NCBI GenBank assembly: GCA_942492995.1
Contig: OW818653.1
Coordinates: 1,710,001 to 1,742,000 of the forward strand
Source of the DNA: an uncultured Erysipelotrichaceae bacterium
Lineage (GTDB): Bacteria; Bacillota_I; Bacilli_A; Erysipelotrichales; Erysipelotrichaceae
Direction: 5' to 3'
Length of the DNA stretch: 32,000 bases
Every line of letters starts with the position of its first letter. The first letter of the stretch is position 1. This document shows, piece after piece, positions 6,214 through 27,880 of this stretch. The notes below the pieces were generated by a model. It saw nothing but the letters and a program-made list of their open reading frames with translations, did no database searches and was not told where the DNA came from. The translations under genes were made by a program, and so were the position numbers.

Positions 6214-6268
6214 TGATTGATGAAAGAACCTCTCAGTGATACCATAAACACAAGAGAGGTTTTTAATT

Positions 6269-7120
6269 ATGAAAGTTGCGGTCGTAACAGATAGTGCATG
6301 TGGCATGAGTCATTTGAATATCAAGATGGATGGATTGTATATGTTACCTCTTCAAATCACAGATGGTGAGAATAATTACTTTGAAGGTGAAAATATTACG
6401 AATGACCAATGTTATCAGATGATGTTCATGGGTAAACATATGAAATCATCGCAACCGTCTTTTGGTCGCATTCAAGAATTATTTACCGAATTGAAAAAAG
6501 ACTATGATCATATTTATGCCGTACCTCTTGGCAAAGGTCTTTCGAGTACATTAAACACAATGGAGCTTGTGGCTAAAGAAGTTGATGTGCCATTTACTGG
6601 AATGGATTGTTACTCCATGGCAAATATTGAACTTGTCTGTGCAGTCACAGCACGTCAATTATTTGATCAAGGGAAGAGTATTGAAGAAGTGGATAAAGTC
6701 ATCCGTGATATGGCAGAACATAGTATTACATTGATCATGGCAGAAGACTTAAAACTCTTTGCGAAGAATGGACGTACAACAGCTCTTGCCGCAACAATCG
6801 GTGGATTTCTAAATATAAAACCAGTTCTTGTGATACGTAAAGAAACTGAAGGTAGAATTGATATATTAGAGAAATTAAGAACGATTCATAAAGCATTCCA
6901 TTTTATCGTGGATGAATTTGAAAAGTTTGGGGTTAATGAAGACTATGAATTTTGTATCGGACATGCATGGAGTAAAGAAAATGCGGAATTACTGGAAAGT
7001 ATGGTTCGTGAACGTTTCCCTGATTCAAAACTCTATGTGACAGATCTTATTTGTAGTGGAGGAGTGAATGCAGGCCTTGGTTGTGTTGCGACTCAAGCAA
7101 TTCGTAAACCAAAGATTTAA
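6269..7120 (+). CDS. DegV family fatty-acid-binding protein (second tandem paralog)
   Basis: 283 aa. VAVVTDSACGM..LPLQITDGE and the sSQPS motif (KSSQPSFG) are DegV-like. Confidence 0.85.
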   Translation: MKVAVVTDSACGMSHLNIKMDGLYMLPLQITDGENNYFEGENITNDQCYQMMFMGKHMKSSQPSFGRIQELFTELKKDYDHIYAVPLGKGLSSTLNTMELVAKEVDVPFTGMDCYSMANIELVCAVTARQLFDQGKSIEEVDKVIRDMAEHSITLIMAEDLKLFAKNGRTTALAATIGGFLNIKPVLVIRKETEGRIDILEKLRTIHKAFHFIVDEFEKFGVNEDYEFCIGHAWSKENAELLESMVRERFPDSKLYVTDLICSGGVNAGLGCVATQAIRKPKI

Positions 7121-7169
7121 CTTGAGTTAAACGTCATTCCTCGTTAAAATAGGTCTAATGAGGTAAGTT

Positions 7170-7871
7170 ATGCGTCGATTTAATTTTAAAGCAGTGTATA
7201 ATTGTCGAGATATTGGTGGTTTTTTAACACAATCAAATCAAGTTGTTAGAAATAATGTTTTTGTACGAAGTGATAATTTAACCGATCTACAAACCGATGA
7301 AATGGAATTCTTACAGGCGTACGGTGTACAAGCAGTTATTGATTTTAGACATCAAAATGAAATCGATCATGCGCCAGATCCATTTGTAAATCATCCTAAT
7401 GTAGATTACTATAATATTGCGATCTTAGATCATGCACAGTTTACACTTGAAGATCTTAATCGTATTAAGCTAAGTGATTTATACATTTCAATGTCAGAAA
7501 ATAAAACGTTTATTAAACAGGTGTTTGATACATTTGCGAAGTACGATAAAGCGATTTTGTATCATTGTACAGCTGGAAAAGATAGAACAGGTGTTATTAC
7601 AGCACTACTATATAAATTAGTTGGTGTACCAGATATCGATATTATTGCGGATTATGAAGTATCGTTTACGTATCTTATCCCTAAGTATGTTGGTAGAGAT
7701 GAGAATGTTAGTGAAATGTATCAAGATTTATTCAGTTCAAAACCTGAAACGATGACTACATTTCTGAATTATTTGAACTATAAGTATCCGAACATATTGG
7801 ATTATTTTATCTCTAGAGATATCTCAATGGAAACCATTGATATCATAAAACGTAAACTATTAGGTGCGTAA
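7170..7871 (+). CDS. Protein-tyrosine-phosphatase-like protein (CX5R; Y_phosphatase3-like)
   Basis: 233 aa. The P-loop HCTAGKDRTG is present, along with N-terminal NCRDIGG and VIDFRHQNE. Paralog of 17211-17927. Confidence 0.8.
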   Translation: MRRFNFKAVYNCRDIGGFLTQSNQVVRNNVFVRSDNLTDLQTDEMEFLQAYGVQAVIDFRHQNEIDHAPDPFVNHPNVDYYNIAILDHAQFTLEDLNRIKLSDLYISMSENKTFIKQVFDTFAKYDKAILYHCTAGKDRTGVITALLYKLVGVPDIDIIADYEVSFTYLIPKYVGRDENVSEMYQDLFSSKPETMTTFLNYLNYKYPNILDYFISRDISMETIDIIKRKLLGA

Positions 7872-7879
7872 GGAGCTCT

Positions 7880-8146
7880 ATGAATCTCAGAAAAGTTTTA
7901 TTAAGCCTAGCATTGATTTTCTTTAGTATTTTGTTTTACTGTATTTTACAAACATATGCGTTATTGGATACTGCAGTTAAAGCGACTGGTGTAACACTTG
8001 CTGAATTATCAGGTAGTGGATTTAATACATTTATCGTATGGCTTCAATTCCCGCTCGTTATTTTATTAATTATTATCTTCATTTATCTAATCTTTGGGGA
8101 TAAGAGTTTAACGGCACAAGCTCAAAACGCTAAACCATTAAAGTAA
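7880..8146 (+). CDS. Small membrane protein (2 TM), unknown function
   Basis: 88 aa with two hydrophobic helices. SD AAGGAG. The gene starts 8 nt after the phosphatase stop. Confidence 0.55.
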   Translation: MNLRKVLLSLALIFFSILFYCILQTYALLDTAVKATGVTLAELSGSGFNTFIVWLQFPLVILLIIIFIYLIFGDKSLTAQAQNAKPLK

Positions 8147-8153
8147 TCAAGTT

Positions 8154-8175
8154 AACACCTGTAAAGGTGTTTTTC
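8154..8175 (+). terminator. Rho-independent terminator (modest)
   Basis: Stem AACACCT / AGGTGTT (7 bp, loop GTAA) followed by TTTT. Confidence 0.55.
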
Positions 8176-8191
8176 GATTAAAGGAGATTCA

Positions 8192-8848
8192 ATGGATAAT
8201 TTATATCAATTAAGGTCTAAGAATGATAAATCGATTAAACAACTTGATCCTGCATCAAGAGAATTAATTCGTTCTATCATGAGTAATATCAGTCAGTATG
8301 AAGTATCTCGTTATGAGTTAGAGAAGATTAAAGGGGATATTTTAGATAAAGCGCATGGTTATACAAAGCGTAATACATCGTTATTTAAAGAAGTGAAGAA
8401 TGTGAAAGCATATTGTACAAATCTAACAGAAAAGTTAAATCTAAGTAAAATAAGCATTAAGAACTTATTACTCATTGAGTACTTACCTATGATTGGTTTC
8501 TTCTTTATGTTTGTAATATTAGTCTTACACTTCTTAGGACTTTGGTTTAGTGGTAATGGTCTAATCACAAGTATTGATGTATCAGTTGGTTATCCAATCT
8601 TTATGGTAGTACAGTACTTCTCGATCGTGTATTTGTTATATCTTGAAAGACGATATTCAATTGAGAATAAATCGAAGAAAAATCTAGGCTCATTTGCGAA
8701 TATATTCCTAGTTCTTACCGTTATTCAGTTTATTTCCGATAGTCCAACACTATCAAGTACACTTATCCAATTAAATCTATTTGTGTTAGTTGGAATCTTA
8801 TTCCTATTCCTCGCATGGGTCGTATATAAAGAACTTCAAACAAATTAA
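8192..8848 (+). CDS. Paralog A: membrane protein with HAAS/DUF1129-like N-terminal helical domain and ~4 TM helices
   Basis: 218 aa. The soluble N-terminal ~85 aa end in KNVKAYCTNLTEKLN, with K-A-Y at residues 72-74. That is the same register as paralogs B, C and E. A hydrophobic C-terminal half follows. SD AAAGGAG. The gene has its own terminators on both sides. Confidence 0.7.
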   Translation: MDNLYQLRSKNDKSIKQLDPASRELIRSIMSNISQYEVSRYELEKIKGDILDKAHGYTKRNTSLFKEVKNVKAYCTNLTEKLNLSKISIKNLLLIEYLPMIGFFFMFVILVLHFLGLWFSGNGLITSIDVSVGYPIFMVVQYFSIVYLLYLERRYSIENKSKKNLGSFANIFLVLTVIQFISDSPTLSSTLIQLNLFVLVGILFLFLAWVVYKELQTN

Positions 8849-8852
8849 AACG

Positions 8853-8880
8853 ATAACTGATTCATTCAGTTATTTTTTTC
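8853..8880 (+). terminator. Rho-independent terminator
   Basis: Stem ATAACTGA / TCAGTTAT (8 bp, 5-nt loop) followed by T7. Confidence 0.8.
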
Positions 8881-8902
8881 TATACAACCCTAGATATTCT
8901 AT

Positions 8903-8913
8903 GTATAATATAC
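8903..8913 (+). promoter_or_regulatory. -10 box TATAAT embedded in palindrome GTATA-A-TATAC (candidate PadR auto-operator)
   Basis: TATAAT at 8904-8909 lies inside a perfect 11-bp palindrome at 8903-8913. Including 3 nt of flanking sequence on each side it reads TAtGTATAATATACcTA, which is imperfect. It sits ~20 nt upstream of the padR ATG. Confidence 0.45.
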
Positions 8914-8928
8914 CTAGGAGCACTAGGT

Positions 8929-9267
8929 ATGGATAAAAACTATATAGGAGCAGGTTCGAATTTATTAATATTAGGTTTAATTAGCCAAAGAGATCGTTAT
9001 GGATATGAGATTATTCGTGATTTAGAGATATTATCTGAAAACGTATTTCAATATAAAGAAGGAACACTTTATCCAATCTTACATAAGTTCGAGGCATTAG
9101 GATATGTAACATCCTATTTTAAACGTGAAAATAATAAAGAACGTAAGTATTACCAGATTACCAATACAGGACGTAAACAATTGATTATCGAGAAAGAAGA
9201 ATTTGAGCTATTTAAAAACACGTTGAGTAATGTCGTGGGGACATTTAAATATGAGTTCAGTGAGTAA
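8929..9267 (+). CDS. PadR family transcriptional regulator (short, ~110-aa subclass)
   Basis: 112 aa. LLILGLISQRDRYGYEIIRDLE ... KEGTLYPILHKFEALGYVTS ... RKYYQITNTGRKQL matches the PadR wHTH consensus. SD AGGAG. Confidence 0.9.
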   Translation: MDKNYIGAGSNLLILGLISQRDRYGYEIIRDLEILSENVFQYKEGTLYPILHKFEALGYVTSYFKRENNKERKYYQITNTGRKQLIIEKEEFELFKNTLSNVVGTFKYEFSE

Positions 9268-10009
9268 TTCATACATTAAACAGGTTTTGAAACATGTTAA
9301 GTTTTTTGTGGATCATCGTTCGATTAAACGTGAACTTAGAAGTCATATCAATGATTTAATTGAGGAACACAATTGGCAATCTCTTTCCAATGAAGAGTTA
9401 AATAATCGCATCATGGAAGAAATGGGTAATCCGGAAGATATTGGAAAAGAGTTAAATAAAATTCATCATCCTATTATCGGGTATGTTTGGGTAATTACTA
9501 GAGCAGTTTTTATTGTGATTCTATGTTTATCGCTCTATAACATATATAAATCAATTACCTTAACATCACAAAGCAGTCTTAATAAATCGGATGAAAATCT
9601 TGATATTAAAAGTATGCTTTATGCGATTGGATACACAAAGGGTGAAGATTTATCGAATGTAAAGTATAGGGATTGGGATATTCGAGAAGTAGTTGAGATT
9701 GATAATACTATATTAATTTTTGAAAGAGTCTTATTGCTTGAAAATGATAATTTAGTTCTTTTATATCGAACAGACGGAAAATTTAATCTGTTTAATCAAT
9801 ACAGTAATATTTTTATGTATAAATCTTTAAAACTTAATCTAAACGATAATAAAGAATATCCTCAAGATATTAATGTTCAAATGTGGATGAATGATTTAGC
9901 GATCATCTATTTTACAGGTGTACCATATGAAACTAAATCAATTAATTTGAATTTTGAACAAGTTAGTGAAGCATTTAATCTAAGTATTAATGGGGATAAT
10001 TATGAATAA
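9251..10009 (+). CDS. Single-pass membrane protein with DUF1700/HAAS-like N-terminal helical domain and ~150-aa extracytoplasmic domain
   Basis: N-terminal region IKRELRSHINDLIEEH...EELNNRIMEEMGNPEDIGKEL resembles the helical module commonly encoded next to PadR genes. One TM helix follows (IIGYVWVITRAVFIVILCLSLY). I prefer the start at ATG 9251: the SD-like GGGGA lies 9 nt upstream, and the gene then overlaps the padR end by 17 nt. The track ORF begins at 9230. Confidence 0.7.
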   Translation: MSSVSNSYIKQVLKHVKFFVDHRSIKRELRSHINDLIEEHNWQSLSNEELNNRIMEEMGNPEDIGKELNKIHHPIIGYVWVITRAVFIVILCLSLYNIYKSITLTSQSSLNKSDENLDIKSMLYAIGYTKGEDLSNVKYRDWDIREVVEIDNTILIFERVLLLENDNLVLLYRTDGKFNLFNQYSNIFMYKSLKLNLNDNKEYPQDINVQMWMNDLAIIYFTGVPYETKSINLNFEQVSEAFNLSINGDNYE

Positions 10010-10367
10010 GAAAATGAAGATTATACTTTATTTAGTAATTAGTATCTTTGGGTTAATCTATCTGTTGAAATCAAATCACATGTATTTGAGTTTAGAAGAT
10101 TATGGGAAATCTCGAGCTAAGGCAGAATTATTTAATAATCCAATCATTGATATTATTCAAATCAAGGGAAATGATGGCATTCTCCTAGCATACGAAGATA
10201 ACTATGTGTCTTGTTACTTCGGTAGGAAATCATTTGGTTTCTTGTGGAAAGACTTTTCTGGAATTGGAATGTTACGTGAAGTAGATGATATGAGTGATGA
10301 AGCTATTGAAACGTATAAACAAGATTGTATCTACTCATATGAGATTAATCATATGAAAGACTGGTGA
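10002..10367 (+). CDS. Small N-terminally anchored membrane protein, unknown function
   Basis: 121 aa from ATG 10002 with N-terminal TM helix KIILYLVISIFGLIYLL. The start overlaps the upstream stop (ATGAATAA). SD-like TGGGGA lies 5 nt upstream. Confidence 0.6.
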   Translation: MNKKMKIILYLVISIFGLIYLLKSNHMYLSLEDYGKSRAKAELFNNPIIDIIQIKGNDGILLAYEDNYVSCYFGRKSFGFLWKDFSGIGMLREVDDMSDEAIETYKQDCIYSYEINHMKDW

Positions 10368-10378
10368 ATTTATTAACA

Positions 10379-10407
10379 TTGTATGTCGTCTTTATTTCTA
10401 GTATCAT
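10379..10407 (+). promoter_or_regulatory. Candidate promoter for the paralog B-E operon leader
   Basis: TTGTAT (10379-10384), 17-nt spacer, TATCAT (10402-10407). An alternative -10, TAAAAT, lies at 10407-10412. Confidence 0.4.
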
Positions 10408-10467
10408 AAAATATAGATAATCATTCGGGGGAATGTATGGGGAAACTAATCATTAAATTTTAGATGT

Positions 10468-10490
10468 AAAACTCATTTTTTGAGTTTTTT
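10468..10490 (+). terminator. Weak terminator/attenuator hairpin directly upstream of paralog B
   Basis: Stem AAAACTCA / TGAGTTTT (8 bp, AU-rich, T5 loop) followed by TTGTTTG. It ends 10 nt before the SD AAGGAGAG of paralog B. Confidence 0.5.
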
Positions 10491-10507
10491 GTTTGTAAGG
10501 AGAGAAC

Positions 10508-11164
10508 ATGTCAGAACTTGTAATACTTAAAAAAGAAAATAAGAATTTAAGGAAATTACTTAAAGGAGATAATAAAAAGTTATTTTTAGATATCGACTAT
10601 TATATTTCAAGACATTATACTTCCAAACAAGAGTATCGATCCTTAATTAATGAAGTGTTAATTGATTTTTCAGATCGAACAAATCTTGGTGAAGATCTGT
10701 GGGATACAATTGAAGATCCTAAAGCATATATTGATAAGTATATTGAAAAGTATAATTTGGAAAAAACGAAATGGGGAACAGTAACAAGTGAATACATTTT
10801 AGTGTTTATAGGATTTCTATGTTTCTATTTCATTTCAACAAACTTTTTATCGCCATCTTCTAATATGCTTAATAATCCATGGTTAATTGAAGTTAGTACT
10901 GAAGGATTTTTTAAATGTTTAGGATATAGTACTTATGGTCTATATTTTGAACTACTAACCAAAGCAACTTTATTTAAAAAGAATAAAGCAATGACTACTC
11001 AAAAAATATTAGTGTTCTTCGGATGGGCTTTACTTATGTTTATTCTATTGGCTTTATCTGGTATGAATATTGTGACAATCACATTGCCTAAAGTAATCGT
11101 ATATTTAGTTTTATTTCTATGTATTTTACTCATTTATCTAATTCAAAAGAAAAGAATGTTTTAA
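10508..11164 (+). CDS. Paralog B: HAAS/DUF1129-like N-terminal domain plus ~4 TM helices
   Basis: 218 aa. EDPKAYIDKYIEKYN, with P-K-A-Y at residues 71-74. N-terminal LKKENKNLRKLLKGDNKKLF. Hydrophobic C-terminal half. SD AAGGAGAG. Confidence 0.75.
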   Translation: MSELVILKKENKNLRKLLKGDNKKLFLDIDYYISRHYTSKQEYRSLINEVLIDFSDRTNLGEDLWDTIEDPKAYIDKYIEKYNLEKTKWGTVTSEYILVFIGFLCFYFISTNFLSPSSNMLNNPWLIEVSTEGFFKCLGYSTYGLYFELLTKATLFKKNKAMTTQKILVFFGWALLMFILLALSGMNIVTITLPKVIVYLVLFLCILLIYLIQKKRMF

Positions 11165-11186
11165 TTAATCAATATTTGGGGGAACA

Positions 11187-11855
11187 ATGATTACAACTGC
11201 TGAACAATCGCAACAAATAAAGGACATTACGAAGAGTCTTGATCGAAGTGACACAATCTTTTGTATGCATGTCGATACTTACTTAAGACAATTTGACTTA
11301 CTTAGAAGTGAATTTATTGAGGCAAAATGGATAATATTGACAGATTTATATTCAAAAGTAATTGATGGAGTAAACATTTGGGAATTATATGAAGATCCAA
11401 AGGTGTATTGTGCGTCGATTGTGTCAAAGTATAATCGAAAATATCTAGGGTTTATAGGTGTAATAATTAAACGCGTTATACCATTGTATTTTGGGTCAAT
11501 CTTATTTATGTTATTAATATTTTCACCTAATGGTTTTTCAAGATTGTTATATTTAGATAATCCTGGTATAGAAATATCAGTAAATACTTTATTGAGATTA
11601 TCATTGATGGTGTTTCTATATTTCTCAACCAGATTATTTGAATACAAAATGTTATTTAATAAAGAACGAAGAAATTTTACGTTTTATTATAATGCGATAA
11701 TACAAGTCTTCATTTTAATAGTACTGACTAATAATTTTACATTAGAAAATAATTTAGCTCAAAACATGGTTACATTAAACCCAATGATAATGGTTATATT
11801 ATTAGGTTTAATTCTTATTTATTACATATATAACCTTAAAAAGTTAATCATATAA
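11187..11855 (+). CDS. Paralog C: HAAS/DUF1129-like N-terminal domain plus ~4 TM helices
   Basis: 222 aa. EDPKVYCASIVSKYN, with P-K-V-Y at residues 71-74. SD TGGGGGAA. 22-nt gap after paralog B. Confidence 0.75.
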   Translation: MITTAEQSQQIKDITKSLDRSDTIFCMHVDTYLRQFDLLRSEFIEAKWIILTDLYSKVIDGVNIWELYEDPKVYCASIVSKYNRKYLGFIGVIIKRVIPLYFGSILFMLLIFSPNGFSRLLYLDNPGIEISVNTLLRLSLMVFLYFSTRLFEYKMLFNKERRNFTFYYNAIIQVFILIVLTNNFTLENNLAQNMVTLNPMIMVILLGLILIYYIYNLKKLII

Positions 11856-11891
11856 GAAATATTAATAATATAGAGAGAAAGGAAATTCATT

Positions 11892-12539
11892 ATGAGTGAA
11901 GTTAAAAACGCAAATAAAATTCTCAAACGCAAATTATCTAAAGACAACTTAATGTTCTATAAAAAAATCCATCAATATATTCGTACACATGACATAACAA
12001 GAGATCAACAACATCAAATATTGAATGAAATACTATTGGATTTTGTAAATAGACAGAACAATGATGAGTTGTTAATGGGATCAATTCGAAACCCTGAAAC
12101 CTATACTAATGAAATATTAAGTAAATATGAAATTGGAAAAAGTAGTTTTGCGATGCTTACGTTAAGACGTTTTCTACCTTTAACAATAATAATCTACTGT
12201 ATATACTTTCTTTATCCTTCATTTCTTAATCCGTTTCCTTATTCAGATTTAAATCCAAATCTAGTAATTATACAGTTACAAGTATTAGTACTTGCGATAC
12301 TTCTGTTTATTTTATTTTTGGTTACTTCGGTGGAAAGTAAAGAAAAGATATTTAGACCTGGTTTAGGGTCAAGTGTTAAATCATTGATTGTTCTTATCGA
12401 TTTTATACTAACATTAATCGTGTTTGATCGATTTAAACATTTAATTGTCACGAGTATACTTGTACCTAAAGCTATCATTTATCTTTTCTTAGGTTTAGCA
12501 ATCCTTGTTAAATTTATTGATAGGAGGAAAGTATTATAA
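11892..12539 (+). CDS. Paralog D: HAAS/DUF1129-like N-terminal domain plus ~4 TM helices
   Basis: 215 aa. RNPETYTNEILSKYE at residues 66-80, a register shifted by -3. SD GAGAAAGGAAA. Confidence 0.7.
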   Translation: MSEVKNANKILKRKLSKDNLMFYKKIHQYIRTHDITRDQQHQILNEILLDFVNRQNNDELLMGSIRNPETYTNEILSKYEIGKSSFAMLTLRRFLPLTIIIYCIYFLYPSFLNPFPYSDLNPNLVIIQLQVLVLAILLFILFLVTSVESKEKIFRPGLGSSVKSLIVLIDFILTLIVFDRFKHLIVTSILVPKAIIYLFLGLAILVKFIDRRKVL

Positions 12540-13207
12540 TGAGTGATCTAAAAACTTTAAGAAAAGAAATGAATAATAGAATGAAATTGTTAGAAAAAGA
12601 TGATCAACATTTCATAAATGGTATCATCCGATATCTTGTAAAGTATGAATTTACGGATAATGAAATATTATCAATTAAGGATGAACTAATTAATAAGTCG
12701 AATGAATCAAGAGATAATTTTAGTGATATTACGCAAACAATTATTAATCCAAAAGAATATTGTAATAAGTTAATTATGAAAGATAATCGTAGAAAAGTGA
12801 GTTTGTTTAGTCAATTTACATTAGTATGGGGTGGTCTTACACTATTACTGTTACTAGTCACATTACTGTTTGATGGTGAGACATTTCGGATAAATGGTGG
12901 ACCGGATAATATGGTGTATACTGTTTTGAAATATAGTTTTATTAGGTACATTATCGGTTTTATGTTTATTATTTTATCTACTTACTTTGTGGATAGAAAA
13001 TTTGATTTTAATCAGAGAGTATATACATTTGTAAGTACTATTAGAATAATCATAATGGTACTTCTAATGGATAGAATATTCTATACTTCGATTGATGTGG
13101 AATGGATAAGAATCGATACAAAAATCATAATAGGATTGATAGTTCTAGTTTCAGTTATTACTCTTATTTTATACATCAGACAAAAAGAACTAAAAAAGCA
13201 GCCGTGA
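12539..13207 (+). CDS. Paralog E: HAAS/DUF1129-like N-terminal domain plus ~4 TM helices
   Basis: 222 aa. INPKEYCNKLIMKDN, with P-K-E-Y at residues 71-74. The start overlaps the paralog D stop (TAATG). SD AGGAGG lies inside the 3' end of D. Confidence 0.75.
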   Translation: MSDLKTLRKEMNNRMKLLEKDDQHFINGIIRYLVKYEFTDNEILSIKDELINKSNESRDNFSDITQTIINPKEYCNKLIMKDNRRKVSLFSQFTLVWGGLTLLLLLVTLLFDGETFRINGGPDNMVYTVLKYSFIRYIIGFMFIILSTYFVDRKFDFNQRVYTFVSTIRIIIMVLLMDRIFYTSIDVEWIRIDTKIIIGLIVLVSVITLILYIRQKELKKQP

Positions 13208-13215
13208 GGCTGCTT
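13192..13215. terminator. Shared hairpin between convergent paralog E and the helicase gene
   Basis: Stem AAGCAGCC / GGCTGCTT (8 bp, loop GTGA). The paralog E stop TGA sits in the loop and the helicase stop lies in the 3' arm. The T-run is good on the minus strand (A6 on plus) and poor on the plus strand. Confidence 0.75.
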
Positions 13216-14854
13216 ATCGTTTGTGACGGCTATAACCGTTGGAATGTCCACCGGTATTGCTTGTCTTAGGTTTAGGAGCACGACCAGTTAGTTCAAATGC
13301 TTTAATCTTAAAGCCTTTGATTGTTCCTTGGTTTAATGCGTCCACAACTTCACGGACAAATTCTTGTGGAATCTCAACATGTGAGAAACGATCTTGGATA
13401 CGGATCTTACCGATATCCTTACCACTGATACCAGCAGATTCTGCGATTGCGGAAACTAAGTGAGCTGCCGCAATGCCTTGTCTTGAACCAACATCCAACT
13501 CAATAGTTGTACTGTTGATCTTAGTAGCACGGCGTTGTTTTTCAATTGGACGTTGAGCTTCTTGGAAGATATCATCGCCAATTACTTTGTATAATAATGC
13601 TTCAGATAGTTGGATTGGGGATAGACCTTCATCCACTAGTTTTTCAACCAATGCTTTGATTTCAGCAGGAATATCTGCTTTTAGCGTCTTCATAATGTCT
13701 TGAGTCATGTGATCGAATCGAACAGATTGGATCTCATTTAATGAAGGCATTTCTTTACGAGCAATCGTAGCTTTTGTTAAACGTTCTAATTCAGAAATTA
13801 CATAACGTTGACGAGGTGTTGTTAGTGTAACGGAAATACCTGATTTACCAGCACGACCTGTACGGCCAATACGGTGAACATAATATTCTGTTTCTTGAGG
13901 AACGTCGTAGTTGAATACCATATCGAGTTCATCAACGTCAATTCCACGCGCCGCAACATCTGTACAAACTAAATGTTGGATCTTCTTGTTTTTGAATTTA
14001 CCCATAACAAGCGTACGCATTTCTTGTTTCATATCACCGTGAATTGCGGCAGTACTATAACCTTTAGAAGAGATGAGGGCACATAAGTCATCAACCATTT
14101 TCTTTGTGTTACAGAAAATCATACTGCTTTCAGGACGATAGAATTCTAATAATTGAACAAGTACTTTAGCCTTGTCACCTTGATTAACTTCGTACACGAA
14201 TTGTTGAATACTATTAACAGTCATTTCTTTCTGTTTAGTCTTAACATGTACTGGGTTAGTCTGATAATTATTCACAATGTCTAAGATTGCCTTAGGCATT
14301 GTCGCAGAGAAGAGTAACGTTTGACGTTCAGTCGGTAAAGACTTAATAATTTCTTCGATTTCTTCCTTAAAGCCCATCTTCAACATTTCATCCGCTTCGT
14401 CTAAAACGAGCGCTTTCAATGAGGAGAACTTTAATGTTCTACGATTGATGTGATCTTGAATTCTCCCTGGTGTACCAACGATGATATCGGCTCCACCTTT
14501 TAAATCTCTGATCTGTGTGGTAATCGGATCTCCTCCGTAAATGGAGACAACCCGTATGCCTTCTTTATATTTTGCAAACTTGCGCATTTCAGCGGTAACT
14601 TGCAGAGTAAGTTCTCGGGTTGGTGTCATGATGAGTACTTGTGGTAATCTCTTCTCAAGTACTTCCAATTTCTCTAATAAAGGTAATCCAAAAGCGGCAG
14701 TTTTACCGGTACCAGTTTGTGACTGACCGATAACATCTCTTCCATCCATAACGGCAGGGATGCACTGTTCTTGGACGGGTGTTGCTTCAACGTAACCAAG
14801 CTCTTCAATGGCTCTGTTAAGTTCAAACGATAAATTTAATTCACTAAATTTCAT
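13214..14854 (-). CDS. DEAD-box ATP-dependent RNA helicase with DbpA-type C-terminal RNA-binding domain
   Basis: Motifs ATPVQ (Q), SQTGTGKT (I), DEAD, SAT and HRIGRTGRAG are all present. The C-terminal ~75 aa resemble the DbpA/DeaD RNA-binding domain, followed by a basic tail. I set the start at ATG 14854 (MKFSELNL, SD AGGAAA). The track start at 14908 lies upstream of the predicted -10. Confidence 0.9.
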   Translation of the reverse strand: MKFSELNLSFELNRAIEELGYVEATPVQEQCIPAVMDGRDVIGQSQTGTGKTAAFGLPLLEKLEVLEKRLPQVLIMTPTRELTLQVTAEMRKFAKYKEGIRVVSIYGGDPITTQIRDLKGGADIIVGTPGRIQDHINRRTLKFSSLKALVLDEADEMLKMGFKEEIEEIIKSLPTERQTLLFSATMPKAILDIVNNYQTNPVHVKTKQKEMTVNSIQQFVYEVNQGDKAKVLVQLLEFYRPESSMIFCNTKKMVDDLCALISSKGYSTAAIHGDMKQEMRTLVMGKFKNKKIQHLVCTDVAARGIDVDELDMVFNYDVPQETEYYVHRIGRTGRAGKSGISVTLTTPRQRYVISELERLTKATIARKEMPSLNEIQSVRFDHMTQDIMKTLKADIPAEIKALVEKLVDEGLSPIQLSEALLYKVIGDDIFQEAQRPIEKQRRATKINSTTIELDVGSRQGIAAAHLVSAIAESAGISGKDIGKIRIQDRFSHVEIPQEFVREVVDALNQGTIKGFKIKAFELTGRAPKPKTSNTGGHSNGYSRHKR

Positions 14855-14888
14855 AAATTTCCTAACTGTACTATAGACATACCGGTGC

Positions 14889-14918
14889 ATTATAGCACGT
14901 ATTGACAAAAAATGTCAT
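14889..14918 (-). promoter_or_regulatory. Promoter of the DEAD-box helicase gene
   Basis: The minus strand reads ATGACA, an 18-nt spacer, then the extended -10 TGCTATAAT (plus-strand coordinates 14889-14897). Confidence 0.65.
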
Positions 14919-15109
14919 AAAAAGATTCGTTATCGTGGAAATGGTAGAGAATTAGATACAATTTCAGTTTAAACCTAAATTTTAGAAAATCAATCGTTTG
15001 GAATTATTTGTTAATTTGAAAGAAACATAGGGTTAGATAAGCGTTTTGTAAAAATGTGTTTAAAATCGATCAATTTCTGATGTATACCTAAATTATTAAT
15101 CATCATGAC

Positions 15110-15138
15110 TTGATAATATTTGATAGCTAGGTTAAAAT
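15110..15138 (+). promoter_or_regulatory. SigA-type promoter of htpG
   Basis: TTGATA (15110-15115), 17-nt spacer, TAAAAT (15133-15138). It lies immediately upstream of the CIRCE element. Confidence 0.7.
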
Positions 15139-15141
15139 ATA

Positions 15142-15168
15142 TTAGCACTCACATCATTAAAGTGCTAA
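15142..15168 (+). promoter_or_regulatory. CIRCE operator (HrcA binding site)
   Basis: TTAGCACTC-N9-AAGTGCTAA differs from the consensus TTAGCACTC-N9-GAGTGCTAA at one position. It sits between the -10 box and the htpG SD. Confidence 0.85.
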
Positions 15169-15178
15169 GAGGAGATTT

Positions 15179-17071
15179 ATGGCAAAGAAACAATACAAAG
15201 CAGAAACGAAACGATTATTGGATCTAGTTATTCATTCTATCTATACGCACAAAGAGATATTCTTAAGAGAACTTATCTCAAATGCGTCTGACGCATTGGA
15301 TAAAGCGTATTACACATCATTAACGGAAGATTTGGCAATTGATCGTACAAATCTATCCATTCGAATTGAACTTGATCCAACATTGCGTACTTTAACCATT
15401 ATTGATAATGGGATTGGTATGACAAAAGAAGAAGTTGAAGATAACCTAGGGGTAATTGCGAAGAGTGGTTCGTATAACTTTAAGAAGAATTTAGAAACGG
15501 CAGATAAACAAGAAGAAGTCGATATTATCGGACAATTTGGAGTAGGATTCTATTCTGCGTTTATGGTTGCGGAAAAAGTGGAAGTCTATACACAAAGCAT
15601 TCGTGACGCTGAAAGTGTGTACTTTGAATCAACCGGTGAAGATGGGTATCGCATTGAAACATTAGATGAAAAATTACCAGTTGGGACAAAAATTGTTCTA
15701 CATATAAATAAGGATGAAGAAGATGAGAAATATGGGGAGTATTTAGAAAGCTATACGGTTAAACGTTTAGTGAAGAAATATTCAGATTATATTCGTTATC
15801 CTATCTTAATGGATGAAGAAGTTAAGGATTATGATGATAAAGGTGATGTAACTGAAACGCGTATTGAGACGAAGACATTAAACTCAATGGTTCCAATTTG
15901 GAAACGTTCGAAGTCAGATTTGAAGGAAGAGGACTACAATACCTTCTATCAATCTAAGTTTAATGATTTCGAGAATCCTCAAAAAGTGATTCATACGAAT
16001 TTAGAAGGTTCTATTTCGTTTGATGCGTTACTCTTTATTCCAAGTCATGTACCTTACAATTTCTATTCTGCAGAATATCAAGCGGGTCTACAACTCTACA
16101 GTAGAGGAGTATTCATTCTAGATAATGCGAAGGAATTAATTCCTGATGCGTTTAGATTTGTGAAGGGATTGGTTGATTCACCGGATTTATCATTAAACAT
16201 TTCCAGGGAAATGTTACAACATGATCGTCAATTAAAGGCAATCGCATCACGATTAGAGAAGAAGATTAAATCAGAACTCTTAGGTATGTTAAAAACAGAT
16301 CGTGAGAACTACGAGAAATTCTGGAAGAACTTTGGACTACAAATTAAATATGGTACCTATGCGAACTATGGTGCGAATCGTGAATTGTTAGAAGACTTAC
16401 TATTATTCACATCAAGCCGTGATAAGAAGTTGGTATCACTTGAAGAATACGTTAGTCGCATGAGTGAAGATCAGAAAGAGATCTACTATGTATCTGGCGA
16501 AACCATAGAGAAGTGTGATAAATTACCACAAGCTGAATGGGTAAAAGAAAAAGGTTTCGAAATACTTTACTTAGTGGATGATGTGGATGAGTTTGTATTA
16601 TCCATATTACATACTTATAAGGAAAAGACATTTAAAGCAATTAATCAAGGTGATTTAGATTTAAGCAGTGAAGAAGAAAAAGAAGCACTTAAATCAAAAG
16701 CTGAAGAGAAGAAAGATTTATTAACTTCATTAAAAGAAGCACTCAAAGACGAAGTAGTCGATGTACGCTTAAGTTCACGTTTGAAATCACATCCTGTATG
16801 TTTAGTTGCGGATGAAGGAATCTCACTTGAAATGGAAAAAGTATTGGCGCAAATGCCAGATGCGAACAATCAAGCTAAGGCAAAACGTATCTTAGAACTT
16901 AACAGTGATCATCCATTGATTGAGGCATTAGGTCATGTCGCAAGTGATAAAGTATCTACTTACGCAAAACTCTTATACAATCAAGCATTACTCATTGAAG
17001 GGTTTACCATTGAAGATCCGATTGAATTCTCGAACGCAATGGCACAACTCATGATTGATGCGTCTAAATAA
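15179..17071 (+). CDS. htpG: Molecular chaperone HtpG (Hsp90)
   Basis: 630 aa. ELISNASDALDK, IGQFGVGFYSAF and the length are diagnostic. SD AGAGGAG. Confidence 0.95.
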   Translation: MAKKQYKAETKRLLDLVIHSIYTHKEIFLRELISNASDALDKAYYTSLTEDLAIDRTNLSIRIELDPTLRTLTIIDNGIGMTKEEVEDNLGVIAKSGSYNFKKNLETADKQEEVDIIGQFGVGFYSAFMVAEKVEVYTQSIRDAESVYFESTGEDGYRIETLDEKLPVGTKIVLHINKDEEDEKYGEYLESYTVKRLVKKYSDYIRYPILMDEEVKDYDDKGDVTETRIETKTLNSMVPIWKRSKSDLKEEDYNTFYQSKFNDFENPQKVIHTNLEGSISFDALLFIPSHVPYNFYSAEYQAGLQLYSRGVFILDNAKELIPDAFRFVKGLVDSPDLSLNISREMLQHDRQLKAIASRLEKKIKSELLGMLKTDRENYEKFWKNFGLQIKYGTYANYGANRELLEDLLLFTSSRDKKLVSLEEYVSRMSEDQKEIYYVSGETIEKCDKLPQAEWVKEKGFEILYLVDDVDEFVLSILHTYKEKTFKAINQGDLDLSSEEEKEALKSKAEEKKDLLTSLKEALKDEVVDVRLSSRLKSHPVCLVADEGISLEMEKVLAQMPDANNQAKAKRILELNSDHPLIEALGHVASDKVSTYAKLLYNQALLIEGFTIEDPIEFSNAMAQLMIDASK

Positions 17072-18820: not shown

Positions 18821-19927
18821 ATGAAACGTAAAAGTATAAAGAAACAAGGGATTGTATACCTATCACTCATCGCATTTACCTTTGTATTGTTTATTGGTGT
18901 ATATGCAGTCATGACTTGGCCAGAAACACATATCGAAGAATCAATGATGGTTGCGGCTGATGAATTTAGAGCTGCGGAACCAATGTTAAAAGCTGCGCCA
19001 GAGACGACTATATTATCCATTGAACTAAATCCAACGACTAAATTTATAGGTTATATTTCATTCATTTCGCTAAGTTTATTGGCGATGTTAATGTATGGAT
19101 ATAAACGATTAATTGAACCAGTCTATCAATTAGGTAAATCAATTCGAGGTTATACAAACAATCGTATTGAGAATAAATATGATTTTGAAGAACTCGAAGA
19201 TATTCGTTCTTCATTTAATAGTGTCACAACGAAATTGAATTCTGCACTAAGTTATCAGAAACGCTTTAATGCGAGTATGGCACATGAATTAAAGACACCG
19301 TTATCGATTATTAAGACACATATTGATGTATTAAATGAACAAAAAGATAAAACGATTGATGATTATCAGAACACATTAGAAATTATCCAAAAAACGGTTC
19401 GTAAAATGAATGCGTTAGTTGAAACATTACTCGATAGTTCACAAGAAGGATCCGATTCATTGAATGATGTGATTAGTGTAGAAGAACTCGTTATGGATGT
19501 TGTGGATGATTTAACGGTATTAGCGAATGATAAACACGTTGAATTAAGTTATAACGTTACGAATACACCAACTTCCTATGGGAATCAGGTACTAATGTAT
19601 CGAGCATTGTATAATTTAATCGAAAATGCGATAAAATATAATAAACCAGGTGGTAGAGTCCATGTCACATCAGAATTTGATGATAAAGCGTATATAATAC
19701 GCGTTAGTGATGATGGTGTAGGGATACCTGAACAAGACTTAGAACGGATATTTGAGCCGTTCTATCGTAGTCGTAAAGAAAATACGGATGGTTTGGGTTT
19801 AGGTTTAGCGTTAGTACAAACCGTTGTACATATGCATAGTGGACAAGTTGTTGTGTTGAGTAAAGAGAATGAAGGATCTGTGTTTGAGATGCATCTTCCA
19901 TATTTAAGTAAAGGGGATAATGTTTAA
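18821..19927 (+). CDS. Sensor histidine kinase (HisKA/HATPase_c, two TM helices, short ~40-aa external loop)
   Basis: 368 aa. H-box SMAHELKTPL, N-box LIENAIKYNKPGG, G1 DDGVGIP and G2 GLGLGLALV. The gene starts 1 nt after the response-regulator stop. Confidence 0.9.
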   Translation: MKRKSIKKQGIVYLSLIAFTFVLFIGVYAVMTWPETHIEESMMVAADEFRAAEPMLKAAPETTILSIELNPTTKFIGYISFISLSLLAMLMYGYKRLIEPVYQLGKSIRGYTNNRIENKYDFEELEDIRSSFNSVTTKLNSALSYQKRFNASMAHELKTPLSIIKTHIDVLNEQKDKTIDDYQNTLEIIQKTVRKMNALVETLLDSSQEGSDSLNDVISVEELVMDVVDDLTVLANDKHVELSYNVTNTPTSYGNQVLMYRALYNLIENAIKYNKPGGRVHVTSEFDDKAYIIRVSDDGVGIPEQDLERIFEPFYRSRKENTDGLGLGLALVQTVVHMHSGQVVVLSKENEGSVFEMHLPYLSKGDNV

Positions 19928-20484
19928 TGAATGTTTATGATTTCGATAAGACAATCTATAAAGATGATAGTTCAAAAGATTTTTATCTGTTCAATTTAAA
20001 AAAGAATCCATTTATCTTAAGATATGGAATACGTCAACTAATCGCATTTCTAGGGTATTCGATGCATCTTATTACTAAAACAGAGATGAAGACAGTTATC
20101 TATACCTACTTTAGAAGTATTAAAGATATGGATAAAAGAGTATTGGAATTCTGGGATAAACATGAACATAATGTGTTTGAATATTACTTCTTACAGAAAC
20201 ATCCTACCGATGTGATTATATCCGCATCCCCTGAATTTATGTTAAAACCGATTTGTGATAAATGGGGAGTAAACTTAATCGCATCAATTGTGGATAAAAA
20301 GTCAGGATTTTCGAAAGAGAATTGTTACGGTGAAGAGAAAGTTAAACGTTTTAGAGAACTTTATCCGGATGCACATGTGAATTCATTCTATTCGGATTCA
20401 TTATCAGACACTCCAATGGCTAAACTTGCGGATGAAAGTTTCTTAGTCACAATCGATGGAATTATACCTTGGCCTAAAAGCTAA
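19927..20484 (+). CDS. HAD-superfamily hydrolase (HAD-IB-like phosphatase)
   Basis: 185 aa. Motif I is VYDFDKTIY (DxD), with a C-terminal YSDSLSDTPM (motif IV-like). The start overlaps the kinase stop (TAATG). Confidence 0.7.
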   Translation: MNVYDFDKTIYKDDSSKDFYLFNLKKNPFILRYGIRQLIAFLGYSMHLITKTEMKTVIYTYFRSIKDMDKRVLEFWDKHEHNVFEYYFLQKHPTDVIISASPEFMLKPICDKWGVNLIASIVDKKSGFSKENCYGEEKVKRFRELYPDAHVNSFYSDSLSDTPMAKLADESFLVTIDGIIPWPKS

Positions 20485-20493
20485 GGTTTTTTT
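20467..20493 (+). terminator. Rho-independent terminator overlapping the HAD gene stop
   Basis: Stem CCTTGGC / GCTAAGG (7 bp including one G-U, 6-nt loop) followed by T7. Confidence 0.7.
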
Positions 20494-20527
20494 AAGGGAA
20501 ATTAATCGAGTAATCATATGTATTAAT

Positions 20528-21631
20528 ATGAACATAAAATGTGAACGATGTGGATGTGAAGAGCTAAAGTACTTTGTGAATCTTAATGGCCGTATGCAAT
20601 GTCGACGTTGTATACAGTACCAAGGTTTAGAAGGATCGGTTCTTTATTACGATGATTCAGTAGAAACTGAAATGAGTTATCAGTTAACAGATTCGCAAAA
20701 AGAATGTTCAAAGAAGATATTAGAAGAAAGTCGTAGTAGAGATGTATTAGTATATGCGATATGTGGAGCTGGTAAAACGGAGTTAGTGTTGGAATCGATT
20801 CAATATGCATTAGAACATAAACAGAAAGTTGGCATTGCGGTTGCACGTCGACAGGTAGTGCTTCAACTCTACGAAAGATTAAAGAAGATATTTACATCGA
20901 TAAAGGTAGTAGCGGTGTGTGAGGGGCATACAGATGACTGTGAGGGGCACTTAATCATTTCTACTACACATCAATTATTTAGATTCCACAAAATGTTCGA
21001 TTTACTCATTCTGGATGAACCAGATGCTTTTCCATTTTGTAGTGATGATACACTTCAAGGATTTGCACGTCAATCGGTTAAAGGACATACCATCTACTTA
21101 ACTGCGACACCGAGTGATGAACTAGTTAATGATGTTAAGAACGGAAAAATATCAGAAGTTCGTTTATTTAGACGGCCGCATGATCATGGATTGGTAATTC
21201 CGGTATGTAAGTACATTCCCTTGTATGGCCAATTTGTATATCTGAAACATTGGTTGAAGAAATTCGAAGAATCATGTTTGATCTTTGTGCCAAGTATAAA
21301 ACTAGGGAATCAATTATCAACCTATCTTGGGATACCATTTGTTTATGCTGGATATTCGAAATTAGATGAATCTATTAAATTGTTCAAAGAAAATTCAGGA
21401 AGTAGATTAATCTGTACAACTGTGCTAGAGCGAGGTGTAACGTTCGAGAATGTTCAAGTGGCGGTTGTATATGCGAACCATACTGTATTTAATCTTGCGA
21501 GTTTAACACAGATATCCGGAAGAGTAGGTAGAAGTATGAACTATCCAAATGGTAGAGTGCTTTTTCTTTGTACAGAACGAAAGGCAGATGTGACCCAATG
21601 CGTAGAGATACAAATACAGGCGAATGTTTAG
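20528..21631 (+). CDS. comFA: Competence protein ComFA (DEAD-like helicase/DNA translocase)
   Basis: N-terminal Cys4 motif CERCGC...CRRC, Walker A AICGAGKTE and DEAD-like LILDEPD, with ComFC immediately downstream. I chose ATG 20528 (MNIKCERCG). The track start at 20456 lies inside the HAD gene and its terminator. No clear SD. Confidence 0.8.
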   Translation: MNIKCERCGCEELKYFVNLNGRMQCRRCIQYQGLEGSVLYYDDSVETEMSYQLTDSQKECSKKILEESRSRDVLVYAICGAGKTELVLESIQYALEHKQKVGIAVARRQVVLQLYERLKKIFTSIKVVAVCEGHTDDCEGHLIISTTHQLFRFHKMFDLLILDEPDAFPFCSDDTLQGFARQSVKGHTIYLTATPSDELVNDVKNGKISEVRLFRRPHDHGLVIPVCKYIPLYGQFVYLKHWLKKFEESCLIFVPSIKLGNQLSTYLGIPFVYAGYSKLDESIKLFKENSGSRLICTTVLERGVTFENVQVAVVYANHTVFNLASLTQISGRVGRSMNYPNGRVLFLCTERKADVTQCVEIQIQANV

Positions 21632-26822: not shown

Positions 26823-26844
26823 AGGACACTGTCATAGTGTCCTT
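26822..26844. terminator. Bidirectional terminator between convergent genes
   Basis: Stem AAGGACACT / AGTGTCCTT (9 bp, 5-nt loop). It overlaps the stop of the minus-strand peptidase gene. Confidence 0.8.
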
Positions 26845-27880
26845 ATTTGATAATAGGGGAATCTTTTGGATAATGATTTAGCACTTCACAACCATTCTCT
26901 GTGACAAGAACTAAATCTTCGATACGAATACCTCCACCATCCGGTAAATAAATACCAGGTTCGATTGAGAAGATCATGCCTACTTCACATATAACATCAC
27001 TACTTGCGCTAACATCATACGGTTCATGAACTTCTTGACCAATACCGTGACCTGTACGATGGATAAAGTATTCTCCGTATCCAGCAGATTGGATTACGAA
27101 TCGTGCCGCATGATCAATATCTTTAAGTAATACACCTGGTTTTACTGTATAAATTGCGGCTAAATTAGCTTTAAGTACAGTTTGATAAACATGATTCAGT
27201 GTATTATCCTCTAAGAAGAATGAGCGTGTCATATCGCTACAATACCCATTCTTAATACATCCCATATCGATAATAATTGGTAACCCTTTAGTTAAGCGTG
27301 TACCATTTGGGACTGCATGTGGGTCGGACGTATTATGTCCAAATGCGACAATCGGAGTAAAACTAACATCATCTGCCCCAAGCGATAGGAATATCTCAGG
27401 GATAAGGGATGCGATTTCCATCTCACTTACGCCTTCTTTCAAATGAGATCGAACAATTTCCATTGCCTTATCATTTAATTGACTCGCAATTCTCATTTTA
27501 TCCATTTCAGATTCATCTTTAATGGATCGTACTTTATCCGCTATTTCTTCGATTTCTACTTTTAATAAAGGATTCATATGCATAAGTCGTAATAAAAATC
27601 CTGCGGCCATATGTTTATCAACATAAAGTACATCAGATTTTAAATCATGATTAACGAGCTTCATAGGATCATCTGTATCATCAAATCGACGTACAGTTAA
27701 ACCAGTTAATTGGGTAGGAAAAAGATTATTTAAATACAGTATAATTTCGTCTTTCTTAATCAGTAATCCGATAAACCTTTCTGATACATGGAATCGTTGA
27801 CCGACTAAATAAGCTATCATTTTTTCATCCGTAATAAGGATTGGATGATTAATCCGTGCTTGAACTTGATACGCTTTCAT
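26843..27880 (-). CDS. M24 family Xaa-Pro peptidase (aminopeptidase P / prolidase-like)
   Basis: 345 aa. Metal-ligand context DMGC..YCSDMTR, HRTGHGIGQEVHE, SIEPGIY and IRIEDLVLVT. No SD upstream of the ATG, and no alternative in-frame start before an upstream stop. Confidence 0.85.
   Translation of the reverse strand: MKAYQVQARINHPILITDEKMIAYLVGQRFHVSERFIGLLIKKDEIILYLNNLFPTQLTGLTVRRFDDTDDPMKLVNHDLKSDVLYVDKHMAAGFLLRLMHMNPLLKVEIEEIADKVRSIKDESEMDKMRIASQLNDKAMEIVRSHLKEGVSEMEIASLIPEIFLSLGADDVSFTPIVAFGHNTSDPHAVPNGTRLTKGLPIIIDMGCIKNGYCSDMTRSFFLEDNTLNHVYQTVLKANLAAIYTVKPGVLLKDIDHAARFVIQSAGYGEYFIHRTGHGIGQEVHEPYDVSASSDVICEVGMIFSIEPGIYLPDGGGIRIEDLVLVTENGCEVLNHYPKDSPIIK

Follow-up and report, generated by a model that had tools for sequence, protein, structure and literature searches.

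How many membrane proteins can a single PadR-type regulator serve? The question is raised by a 32,000-nucleotide (nt) stretch of DNA from an uncultured Erysipelotrichaceae bacterium (GenBank assembly GCA_942492995.1, contig OW818653.1, positions 1,710,001 to 1,742,000; hereafter the window), in which nine plus-strand open reading frames (ORFs), one of them padR, are enclosed by a Y_phosphatase3 gene (7170-7871) on one side and, on the other, by a minus-strand DEAD-box helicase gene (13214-14908) that converges on them. A first-pass annotation had seen here one PadR surrounded by six membrane proteins with HAAS-like helical N-terminal domains. Its coordinates and its description of the ORFs were correct (all nine are present, all on the plus strand), and two of the nine, tm88 and o125, are further small membrane proteins that it had left uncounted.

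The HAAS superfamily, which in a published HHpred analysis unites DUF1700, DUF1129 and DUF1048, is characterized by consecutive helices, the third of which is kinked at a GxP motif, and always lies beside a standalone PadR; HAAS and PadR together are proposed to provide an alternative to two-component systems, and fusions of HAAS to uncharacterised four-transmembrane (4-TM) domains have been described (bioRxiv 10.1101/2020.09.24.301986, also PMC11237479). We found that padR, the overlapping gene of a 259-amino-acid (aa) membrane protein (hereafter the partner) and o125 form a core that is a member-like instance of this pair. As in the published pair, a standalone short PadR is coupled to a membrane protein with a small, predicted cytoplasmic, helical N-domain that carries the GxP kink, and in the partner this domain is followed by a TM helix and a putative sensory domain. 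What is new here is one PadR with two HAAS-superfamily architectures—the single-pass partner and five proteins, paralogs A to E, with a predicted N-domain/4-TM layout—together with a variable four-gene array. Unlike in the published pair, four of the N-domain/4-TM proteins (B to E) form this tandem array away from padR and one (A) stands independently upstream, and the block is without PspC, Toastrack/DUF4097 and LiaI-LiaF-TM domains. No description of such one-PadR arrays was found in the literature searched. The block is laid out as follows.

7880-8146, plus strand: tm88, 88 aa, two predicted TM helices (two hydrophobic segments), starting 9 nt past the phosphatase gene
8154-8171, plus strand: terminator-like hairpin and T-run between tm88 and paralog A, directly 5' of the ribosome-binding site (RBS) of A
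8192-8848, plus strand: paralog A, putative divergent DUF1048/DUF1129-type N-domain and TM region
8847-8879, plus strand: intrinsic terminator 3' of paralog A, stem and T7 run (inverted repeat I6)
8881-8909, plus strand: padR promoter TATACA-17-TATAAT, 10/12 match to consensus
8890-8930, no strand assigned: candidate PadR operator cluster, four CTAGGTAT-type half-sites
8929-9267, plus strand: padR, 112-aa single-domain PadR-type winged helix-turn-helix protein
9230-10009, plus strand: PadR partner, 259 aa, overlapping padR by 38 nt
9990-10367, plus strand: o125, 125 aa, overlapping the partner gene
10419-10445, plus strand: 27-nt block AATCATTCGGGGGAATGTATGGGGAAA in the spacer upstream of the array, with a CATTC-GGGG-GAATG stem-loop
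10468-10490, plus strand: weak terminator-like hairpin AAAACUCA/UGAGUUUU and U-run, 17 nt 5' of the paralog B start
10508-11164, plus strand: paralog B, predicted N-domain and 4 TM helices
11187-11855, plus strand: paralog C, family profile match
11892-12539, plus strand: paralog D, family profile match
12539-13207, plus strand: paralog E, family profile match, its start sharing one base with the stop codon of D
13196-13215, no strand assigned: bidirectional intrinsic terminator, found on both strands, 8-bp stem including 5 GC pairs

The identity of the regulator is unambiguous. PadR matches Pfam PF03551 at 81.9 bits (cut-off 27; E=3.3e-23), belongs to the short single-domain, LmrR-like subtype, and has as its closest solved structures 3L7W, 5DYM and LmrR (3F8B), all short PadRs. 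A local PadR hidden Markov model (HMM) finds this gene only, as had been noted from the outset, and a second PadR locus in the window was rejected on the same result. One does exist at the end of L009 (loci compared with the window carry L numbers), where, some 9 kb downstream from the cassette (19533-20636), a second PadR gene has a minus-strand DUF4097 gene of the Toastrack type as its neighbour. In the window, the 345-aa minus-strand ORF at 26843-27880 is, as we take it from its sequence motifs, Xaa-Pro/M24 peptidase-like rather than DUF4097.

The partner gene, whose start codon lies 38 nt inside padR, is probably translationally coupled to it. Residues 29-76 of its product match both Pfam HAAS (PF22564; 17.4 bits, E=0.006, below the cut-off of 27) and NCBIfam perm_prefix_1 (NF038403; 27.3 bits, E=2.3e-6, below the cut-off of 30), and both matches cover the same segment, reach the end of the model and stop at the MEEMGNPED motif. 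In an AlphaFold2 (AF2) model with a pLDDT of only 70, helices 54-65 and 68-78 are broken exactly at G66-N-P68, the glycine and proline of which are invariant in 16 orthologs, and are followed by a long TM helix (82-117) and an eight-stranded beta domain (146-254). The partner fits the published HAAS definition in its consecutive helices, in the kink of the third at GxP and in the adjacent padR, and its HAAS-like N-domain is predicted to be cytoplasmic and joined by a single TM helix to an extracellular domain of beta-sandwich type. The earlier suggestion that its N terminus is HAAS/DUF1700-like is thus upheld by the hallmarks, with curated-model scores that stay below cut-off. A Foldseek search of the model against the PDB gave generic immunoglobulin-like/beta-sandwich matches only, none at E<=0.001. 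Orthologs of the partner are confined to this clade, where the padR-partner pair is kept in the window and in nine related loci (including L001-L005, L009, L010, in which the contig end cuts the partner, and L016), and identity to L001 and L009 is 70-74% in the N-domain and 43% in the ectodomain. The third gene of the core, o125, encodes a hydrophobic segment at residues 8-26, an N-terminal TM anchor, and a predicted extracellular domain of ~95 aa; it has no family match in Pfam or NCBIfam and is present in every cassette-bearing locus with sequence reaching that far.

Upstream of padR, and nowhere else in the block, there are a good promoter and palindromic operator candidates. This promoter, the best in the block, is nearly invariant across five loci, and is accompanied by two inverted repeats (IR): IR1, CTAtGTAT-AAT-ATACCTAG (8899-8917), lies over the -10 box, and IR2, ATACCTAG-GAGCA-CTAGGTAT (8910-8930), is a perfect inverted repeat over the padR Shine-Dalgarno sequence and start codon. 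The exact octamer occurs in the 32 kb only at 8910 (+) and 8923 (-), the region is invariant in L001, L004, L009 and L010, and the Listeria LftR operator, GTAWTAC-N3-ATAC, is similar to its core, GTAT-N3-ATAC. We therefore regard 8890-8930 as a candidate PadR operator cluster. IR2, which as RNA gives a 9-bp hairpin, may alternatively occlude the RBS at the RNA level, or may act as both DNA operator and translational occluder; since it is invariant in all loci, covariation cannot tell one from the other. No padR operator half-sites were found upstream of A or B.

What, then, are the five paralogs? They are collinear and share 17-31% pairwise identity (BLASTP E=4e-24 for B against D); exact look-ups of the A and B proteins found no entry. 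Scanned directly, A to D match neither DUF1048 (PF06304) nor DUF1129 (PF06570) in Pfam, E alone matches DUF1129 (16.6 bits against a cut-off of 29.1, E=0.006, model positions 4-201 of 207), and such weak direct matches are seen in 2/16 clade members. A profile of the clade (A2), run against 1.84 billion cluster representatives, retrieved 397 of them at E<=1e-3, nearly all of them full-length matches of similar size, and among the best 147 of those 397 there are 94 DUF1048 and 59 DUF1129 matches (Pfam, E<=1e-3). A broader profile made from those 147 (A3) matches the DUF1048 structures 2HH6 (4e-6), 2O4T (5e-5) and 2O3L (0.011) over the N-domain, and the window paralogs at E-values of 1e-23 to 1e-38 (A 3e-31, B 1.6e-38, C 2e-23, D 5e-26). 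Only A3 reached these structures: the PDB sequence search with the narrow A2 gave no meaningful match, and Foldseek of the full-length model of B against the PDB gave nothing significant and did not recover the DUF1048 structures. Paralogs A to E are, by this transitive profile evidence, divergent members of the DUF1048/DUF1129 branch, and their first-pass label of DUF1129/DUF1048-like is confirmed in this way, even though direct Pfam and NCBIfam scans fall short. The low pairwise identity and the 26-30% G+C of the block (33-37% in the flanks) might suggest that the likeness stems from the compositional bias of AT-rich hydrophobic ORFs, an explanation that we consider refuted, and whose probability is next to nil, by the profile search, the family HMM matches and ortholog conservation. 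The matches are collinear and full-length, the search drew its mostly similar-sized proteins, many of them DUF1048/DUF1129, from an enormous set, and each paralog has conserved orthologs in other genomes, subject to purifying selection.

The AF2 model of B (pLDDT 81), with a helical N-domain at residues 3-81, a break at the D-P motif and then four TM helices, agrees with the ~85-aa helical module and ~4 TM helices originally proposed. Sequence and model both put a lysine-rich TM2-TM3 loop and the C-terminal tail of B inside and a TM1-TM2 loop free of lysine and arginine outside, which would place the N-domain in the cytoplasm. The x-[DN]-[PV]-[KE]-x-Y motif that first drew attention to these proteins is real, and is a degenerate form of a family signature, G-x-D-[YP]-K-x-[FY]-C-D. 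The window paralogs keep only its [DN]-P-K-x-Y core, with V for P in A (NVKAY) and E for K in D. The glycine is missing in A, B and E, not assessable in C and may be present in D, and the C-D pair is lost as such: A, C and E retain its C only and B its D only. The N-domain is better conserved than the TM part in B, in C and in the partner.

The wider family provides the standard against which this locus has to be judged. We used the motif IGxDY[KQR]xFCD to scan metagenome contigs, and local HMMs served to annotate the 80 loci obtained, so that the sample consists of the 80 best matches to one motif-bearing subfamily. PadR is encoded immediately upstream in 63/65 non-redundant loci with >=400 nt of upstream sequence (~97%); a 64th locus with PadR (L058) is excluded solely by the distance filter, and L079 lacks a PadR in the 1 kb available upstream. 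The spacing of the two genes ranges from -83 to +7 nt, and in most loci the frames overlap by 1-83 nt, which argues for co-expression and probably a complex. Where enough flank was available on both sides, the family gene is single in 36/38 loci (~95%), one locus having two copies and one three; the latter is L088, where at 6227-8642 a single PadR gene precedes a tandem of three family genes (259, 229 and 219 aa). Two family genes are carried by L092 and L094, and among clostridial loci that were fetched separately L011 has a single copy and L013-L015 have two each. Outside the Erysipelotrichaceae clade, too, there are thus small expansions and rare cases of uncoupling. The Bacillus halodurans genes of the structures 2HH6 (BH3980) and 2O4T (BH3976) are four locus tags apart, a spacing that hints at another multi-copy DUF1048 locus.

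These numbers bear out the statement of the first-pass annotation that one PadR with one partner is the norm, and its judgement that six candidates are unusual. The mainstream DUF1048 N-domain plus 4-TM proteins of Clostridia and other Bacillota (L011-L015, L018-L097) have the layout of the window paralogs, to which profile searches show them to be homologous, and the same length of ~215-230 aa. However, mainstream members overlap the PadR stop codon, are mostly single and keep G-x-D-Y-K-x-F-C-D, whereas the degenerate window copies number five and lie apart from padR: B starts 1240 nt past the padR stop and A is upstream behind a terminator. The window is an outlier because it has five family copies and because the PadR-coupled position is held by a different, 259-aa HAAS protein; it represents a lineage-specific expansion of a signalling pair that is known mostly from computational prediction.

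Do all five paralogs belong with this PadR? For paralog A the answer appears to be negative. The terminator at 8847-8879 precedes the padR promoter, and its stem is kept by compensatory changes, AACTGA..TCAGTT in the window and AATCGA..TCGATT in L001/L009; the region 8845-8935 has an RNA folding z-score of -5.15. In L006 and L007, which have the same flanks as the window, only tm88 and A are present, followed by the helicase, with no padR, partner, o125 or array, and in L008 an A ortholog lies in an unrelated context, again without PadR. A covarying terminator before the padR promoter and orthologs without PadR mark A as a separate unit. Between the phosphatase gene and A, tm88 is always found in syntenic loci, including L006 (counterpart at 9669-9935) and L007, but not in L008. 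Paralog A and tm88 thus seem to be an older, separately transcribed member that is independent of this PadR. Conservation in A is lower in the N-domain (45-51%) than in the TM part (63-64%), and only two species-level genomes came up when genomes were scanned with orthologs of A. The hairpin at 8154-8171 (-11.6 kcal/mol, z=-2.5), with its T-run before the RBS of A, has the same layout as the one before paralog B. The six-member array envisaged at first is therefore only partly upheld as a unit: A is terminated before the padR promoter and persists without PadR, and paralogs without a nearby PadR, named at the outset as evidence against the array, do occur in the case of A.

Comparison of close relatives reveals turnover of the array. 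The syntenic loci share DegV-DegV-phosphatase and helicase-HtpG flanks. Four downstream paralogs are found in the window, L016 and L017, three in L001, two plus a 112-aa remnant in L004 and L005, one in L009 and none in L006 and L007. The variation in copy number that the first-pass annotation had thought worth looking for is therefore real, and on its companion question, whether the paralogs travel with padR, B-E-type genes always occur with padR, partner and o125, and A does not. In a tree of all copies, A is present in all of these loci and in L008, B in four, C in three, D in three and E in two, and at least one further paralog type is confined to L001 and L009, which makes at least six old paralog lineages. 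Orthologs were assigned in L002, L016 and L004 for B, in L016 and L001 for C, in L016 and L004 for D, and only in L016/L017 for E. Since the copies are old lineages and not recent duplications, the differences between loci are differences in loss or gain. The remnant, which follows the second downstream paralog in L004 and L005 and matches the family HMM weakly (E=9e-6), indicates that copies are lost by pseudogenisation; in this region (L004 10648-11320, L005 2987-3659) ORFs of 30 and 93 aa are called, and an ORF finder gives 112 aa.

Evolutionary rates separate the regulator from the membrane proteins around it. Between the window and L001, identity is 87-93% for the flanking genes and 95% for PadR, and only 50% for tm88, 59% for A, 54% for the partner, 56% for o125 and 61% for C. 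PadR is 93-99% identical across loci, and paralog B is 78% identical to its counterpart in L016, where the flanks are 99-100% identical. The ratio of nonsynonymous to synonymous substitution (dN/dS) is 0.02-0.14 in the flanks, 0.01-0.05 in PadR and 0.13-0.5 in the membrane proteins, with values of 0.13-0.3 for the array paralogs and 0.5 for tm88 against L001. The membrane proteins are under purifying selection, which is clearly weaker than the very strong constraint on PadR; no gene-wide positive selection on the paralogs was seen (dN/dS <1). Between the window and L016, synonymous divergence (dS) is 0.21-0.46 in the cassette (0.30 for padR) and 0.04-0.15 in the flanks (helicase 0.04, tm88 0.035, HtpG 0.10). 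A cassette dS several-fold above that of the flanks suggests recombinational exchange of cassette alleles, and in both dS and G+C the history of the cassette seems to differ from that of its surroundings.

The 140-nt spacer between o125 and B bears on how the array might be expressed. In this otherwise diverging spacer, the 27-nt block does not vary among four of the five loci, while the fifth, L009, departs from it at two positions, and its stem-loop is predicted in all three sequence variants. The block has no Rfam match and no likeness to the padR operator, and may serve as an attenuator, bind a protein or direct RNA processing. A leader peptide in it was rejected, as short frames are not conserved among the window, L001 and L009. 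The hairpin at 10468-10490 keeps its stem in L001/L009 with a different loop and a stem extension; equivalents of block and hairpin lie at 12187-12260 in L001, ~9130-9200 in L004 and ~12190-12260 in L009. We found no convincing promoter between o125 and B, and since the hairpin so close to the start of B leaves no room for one behind it, B to E would most simply be expressed by read-through from upstream. They share one orientation, with intergenic gaps of <=36 nt, and end at the strong terminator that is common to the array and the convergent helicase gene. With this terminator at one end and the hairpin at 8154-8171 at the other, the block is indeed bounded by terminators and lies, as first described, between a phosphatase and a DEAD-box helicase (Pfam assignments, for the helicase from annotation of the syntenic loci). 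An Rfam scan of 7000-15300 gave no family. Two weak matches at 13150-13324, over the bidirectional terminator, one to STnc50 (28 bits, gathering score 55) and one to MicX (23.8 bits, gathering score 75), are almost certainly chance matches to its hairpin.

How can these findings be put together? We lean, tentatively and with rather less than even confidence, towards a HAAS-PadR module for envelope signalling that is autoregulated and has acquired, as an appendage, a tandem set of HAAS-superfamily membrane proteins of a second kind, with B to E as extra membrane-tethered PadR co-regulators. In such a system a PadR dimer would repress its own promoter through the CTAGGTAT inverted repeats, while the partner ectodomain, possibly with o125, would sense an envelope signal that the HAAS domain relays to PadR. 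The relay would free or capture PadR and so de-repress the operon, and read-through of the weak hairpin before B would lead to expression of B to E, the cytoplasmic N-domains of which would act as extra PadR co-regulators, each with its own 4-TM sensing module, so that inputs converge. The tandem set would have been gained and lost over evolutionary time. We favour co-regulators because homologs in the wider family are PadR-coupled and because in Listeria de-repression of the PadR-type LftR on aurantimycin requires a DUF1048 co-regulator, LftS (bioRxiv 10.1101/2023.07.27.550809; genetic link in PMC4517056).

Several findings weigh against this proposal. The window paralogs score 18-47 bits against the mainstream PadR-coupled family HMM, and with most mainstream invariants gone, including the G of G-x-D and the F-C-D triplet, PadR binding may be lost as well. 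The partner does not match that HMM at all, and partner and paralog profiles align in hhalign at E=0.09-0.2 with a probability <1%, although GxP and [DN]P fall in register, so that the six supposed partners cannot be treated as one kind by direct profile similarity. Paralog A does without PadR in three loci; array copy number ranges from 0 to 4 among close relatives and, with the remnant in L004 and the raised dN/dS, suggests that individual copies are dispensable; and the position of the array, two genes and a spacer with its own conserved element and hairpin away from padR, suggests separate or additional control. A many-to-one hub, in which up to six HAAS-superfamily membrane proteins, each bringing a sensing module, compete for or sequester one PadR and the repertoire turns over by gain, loss and recombination, we consider improbable.

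In a different account, which we judge somewhat unlikely, padR, partner and o125 would be a complete sensor-regulator and B to E the envelope effectors that it regulates, protective or transport-like membrane proteins whose N-domain, an inherited fold, has ceased to communicate with PadR. Such cargo would be expected where B to E are found, distal in the operon and behind the regulator and its coupled partner; the lost invariant residues would be explained, and variable copy number under weaker purifying selection fits dispensable effectors that face variable external agents. However, in the 63/65 wider-family loci the same type of protein is the only PadR-coupled gene, which is the position of a co-regulator, and the cytoplasmic N-domain is kept in every copy and is the better conserved part in B and C. 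Furthermore, no transporter, enzyme or defence family was matched in Pfam, NCBIfam or PADLOC, whose models gave nothing better than E=0.0045 at 14 bits against all nine proteins. Less probable still is that the array is a decaying relic of PadR-DUF1048 pairs, now under its own control through 10419-10490 (an attenuator or the site of another regulator), with little or no functional link to this PadR and an adjacency that is historical. A nearly invariant block without padR-operator half-sites amid a diverging spacer, the piecemeal loss of copies down to a remnant, a paralog that already lives without PadR and a cassette dS pointing to recombinational turnover would all be understandable on that account. 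Nevertheless, every locus with B-E-type genes has padR, partner and o125, and in L006/L007 all are absent together; the dN/dS of the array paralogs denotes purifying selection and not neutral decay; a promoter of their own was not convincingly found; and the four-copy state is kept in two lineages, window and L016. The co-regulator, cargo and remnant readings are not fully exclusive.

The systems closest to this locus are those of Listeria. LltR represses its own operon (lmo0599-0600-0601), an autorepressed three-gene core that encodes PadR, a DUF1700 membrane protein and a DUF4097 exoprotein (PMC6624303), and its order of PadR, HAAS-type membrane protein and extracytoplasmic protein is that of padR, partner and o125. 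Unlike in the LltR operon, o125 and the partner ectodomain match no known family, and Listeria is without an appended paralog array. The Listeria monocytogenes LftR-LftS system similarly combines PadR and DUF1048-family genes, which there are bicistronic, and its operator palindrome, GTA..TAC-N3-ATAC, is similar in type to the core that overlies the -10 box in the window, GTAT-AAT-ATAC. It differs in being one-to-one and in that the target of LftR is an ABC transporter encoded elsewhere in the genome, whereas the DUF1048-like domains in the window are predicted to be fused to four TM helices, multiplied and highly divergent.

The practical reach of these findings is limited to a narrow, apparently uncultured Erysipelotrichaceae clade. 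For the family, the proposal that HAAS-PadR is a widespread Gram-positive alternative to two-component signalling rests mostly on genome context and a few genetic studies in Listeria, and our survey puts numbers on two rules that had been found only qualitatively in the literature, PadR adjacency and single copy. The locus is also a natural comparative system for N-domain-PadR binding, for the residues that are key to it and for the sharing of one repressor by several sensors. If the many-to-one hub were true, it would parallel, in one-component style, the convergence of multiple sensor kinases on one response regulator, and the varying repertoire of membrane proteins would tune which envelope insults de-repress the operon.

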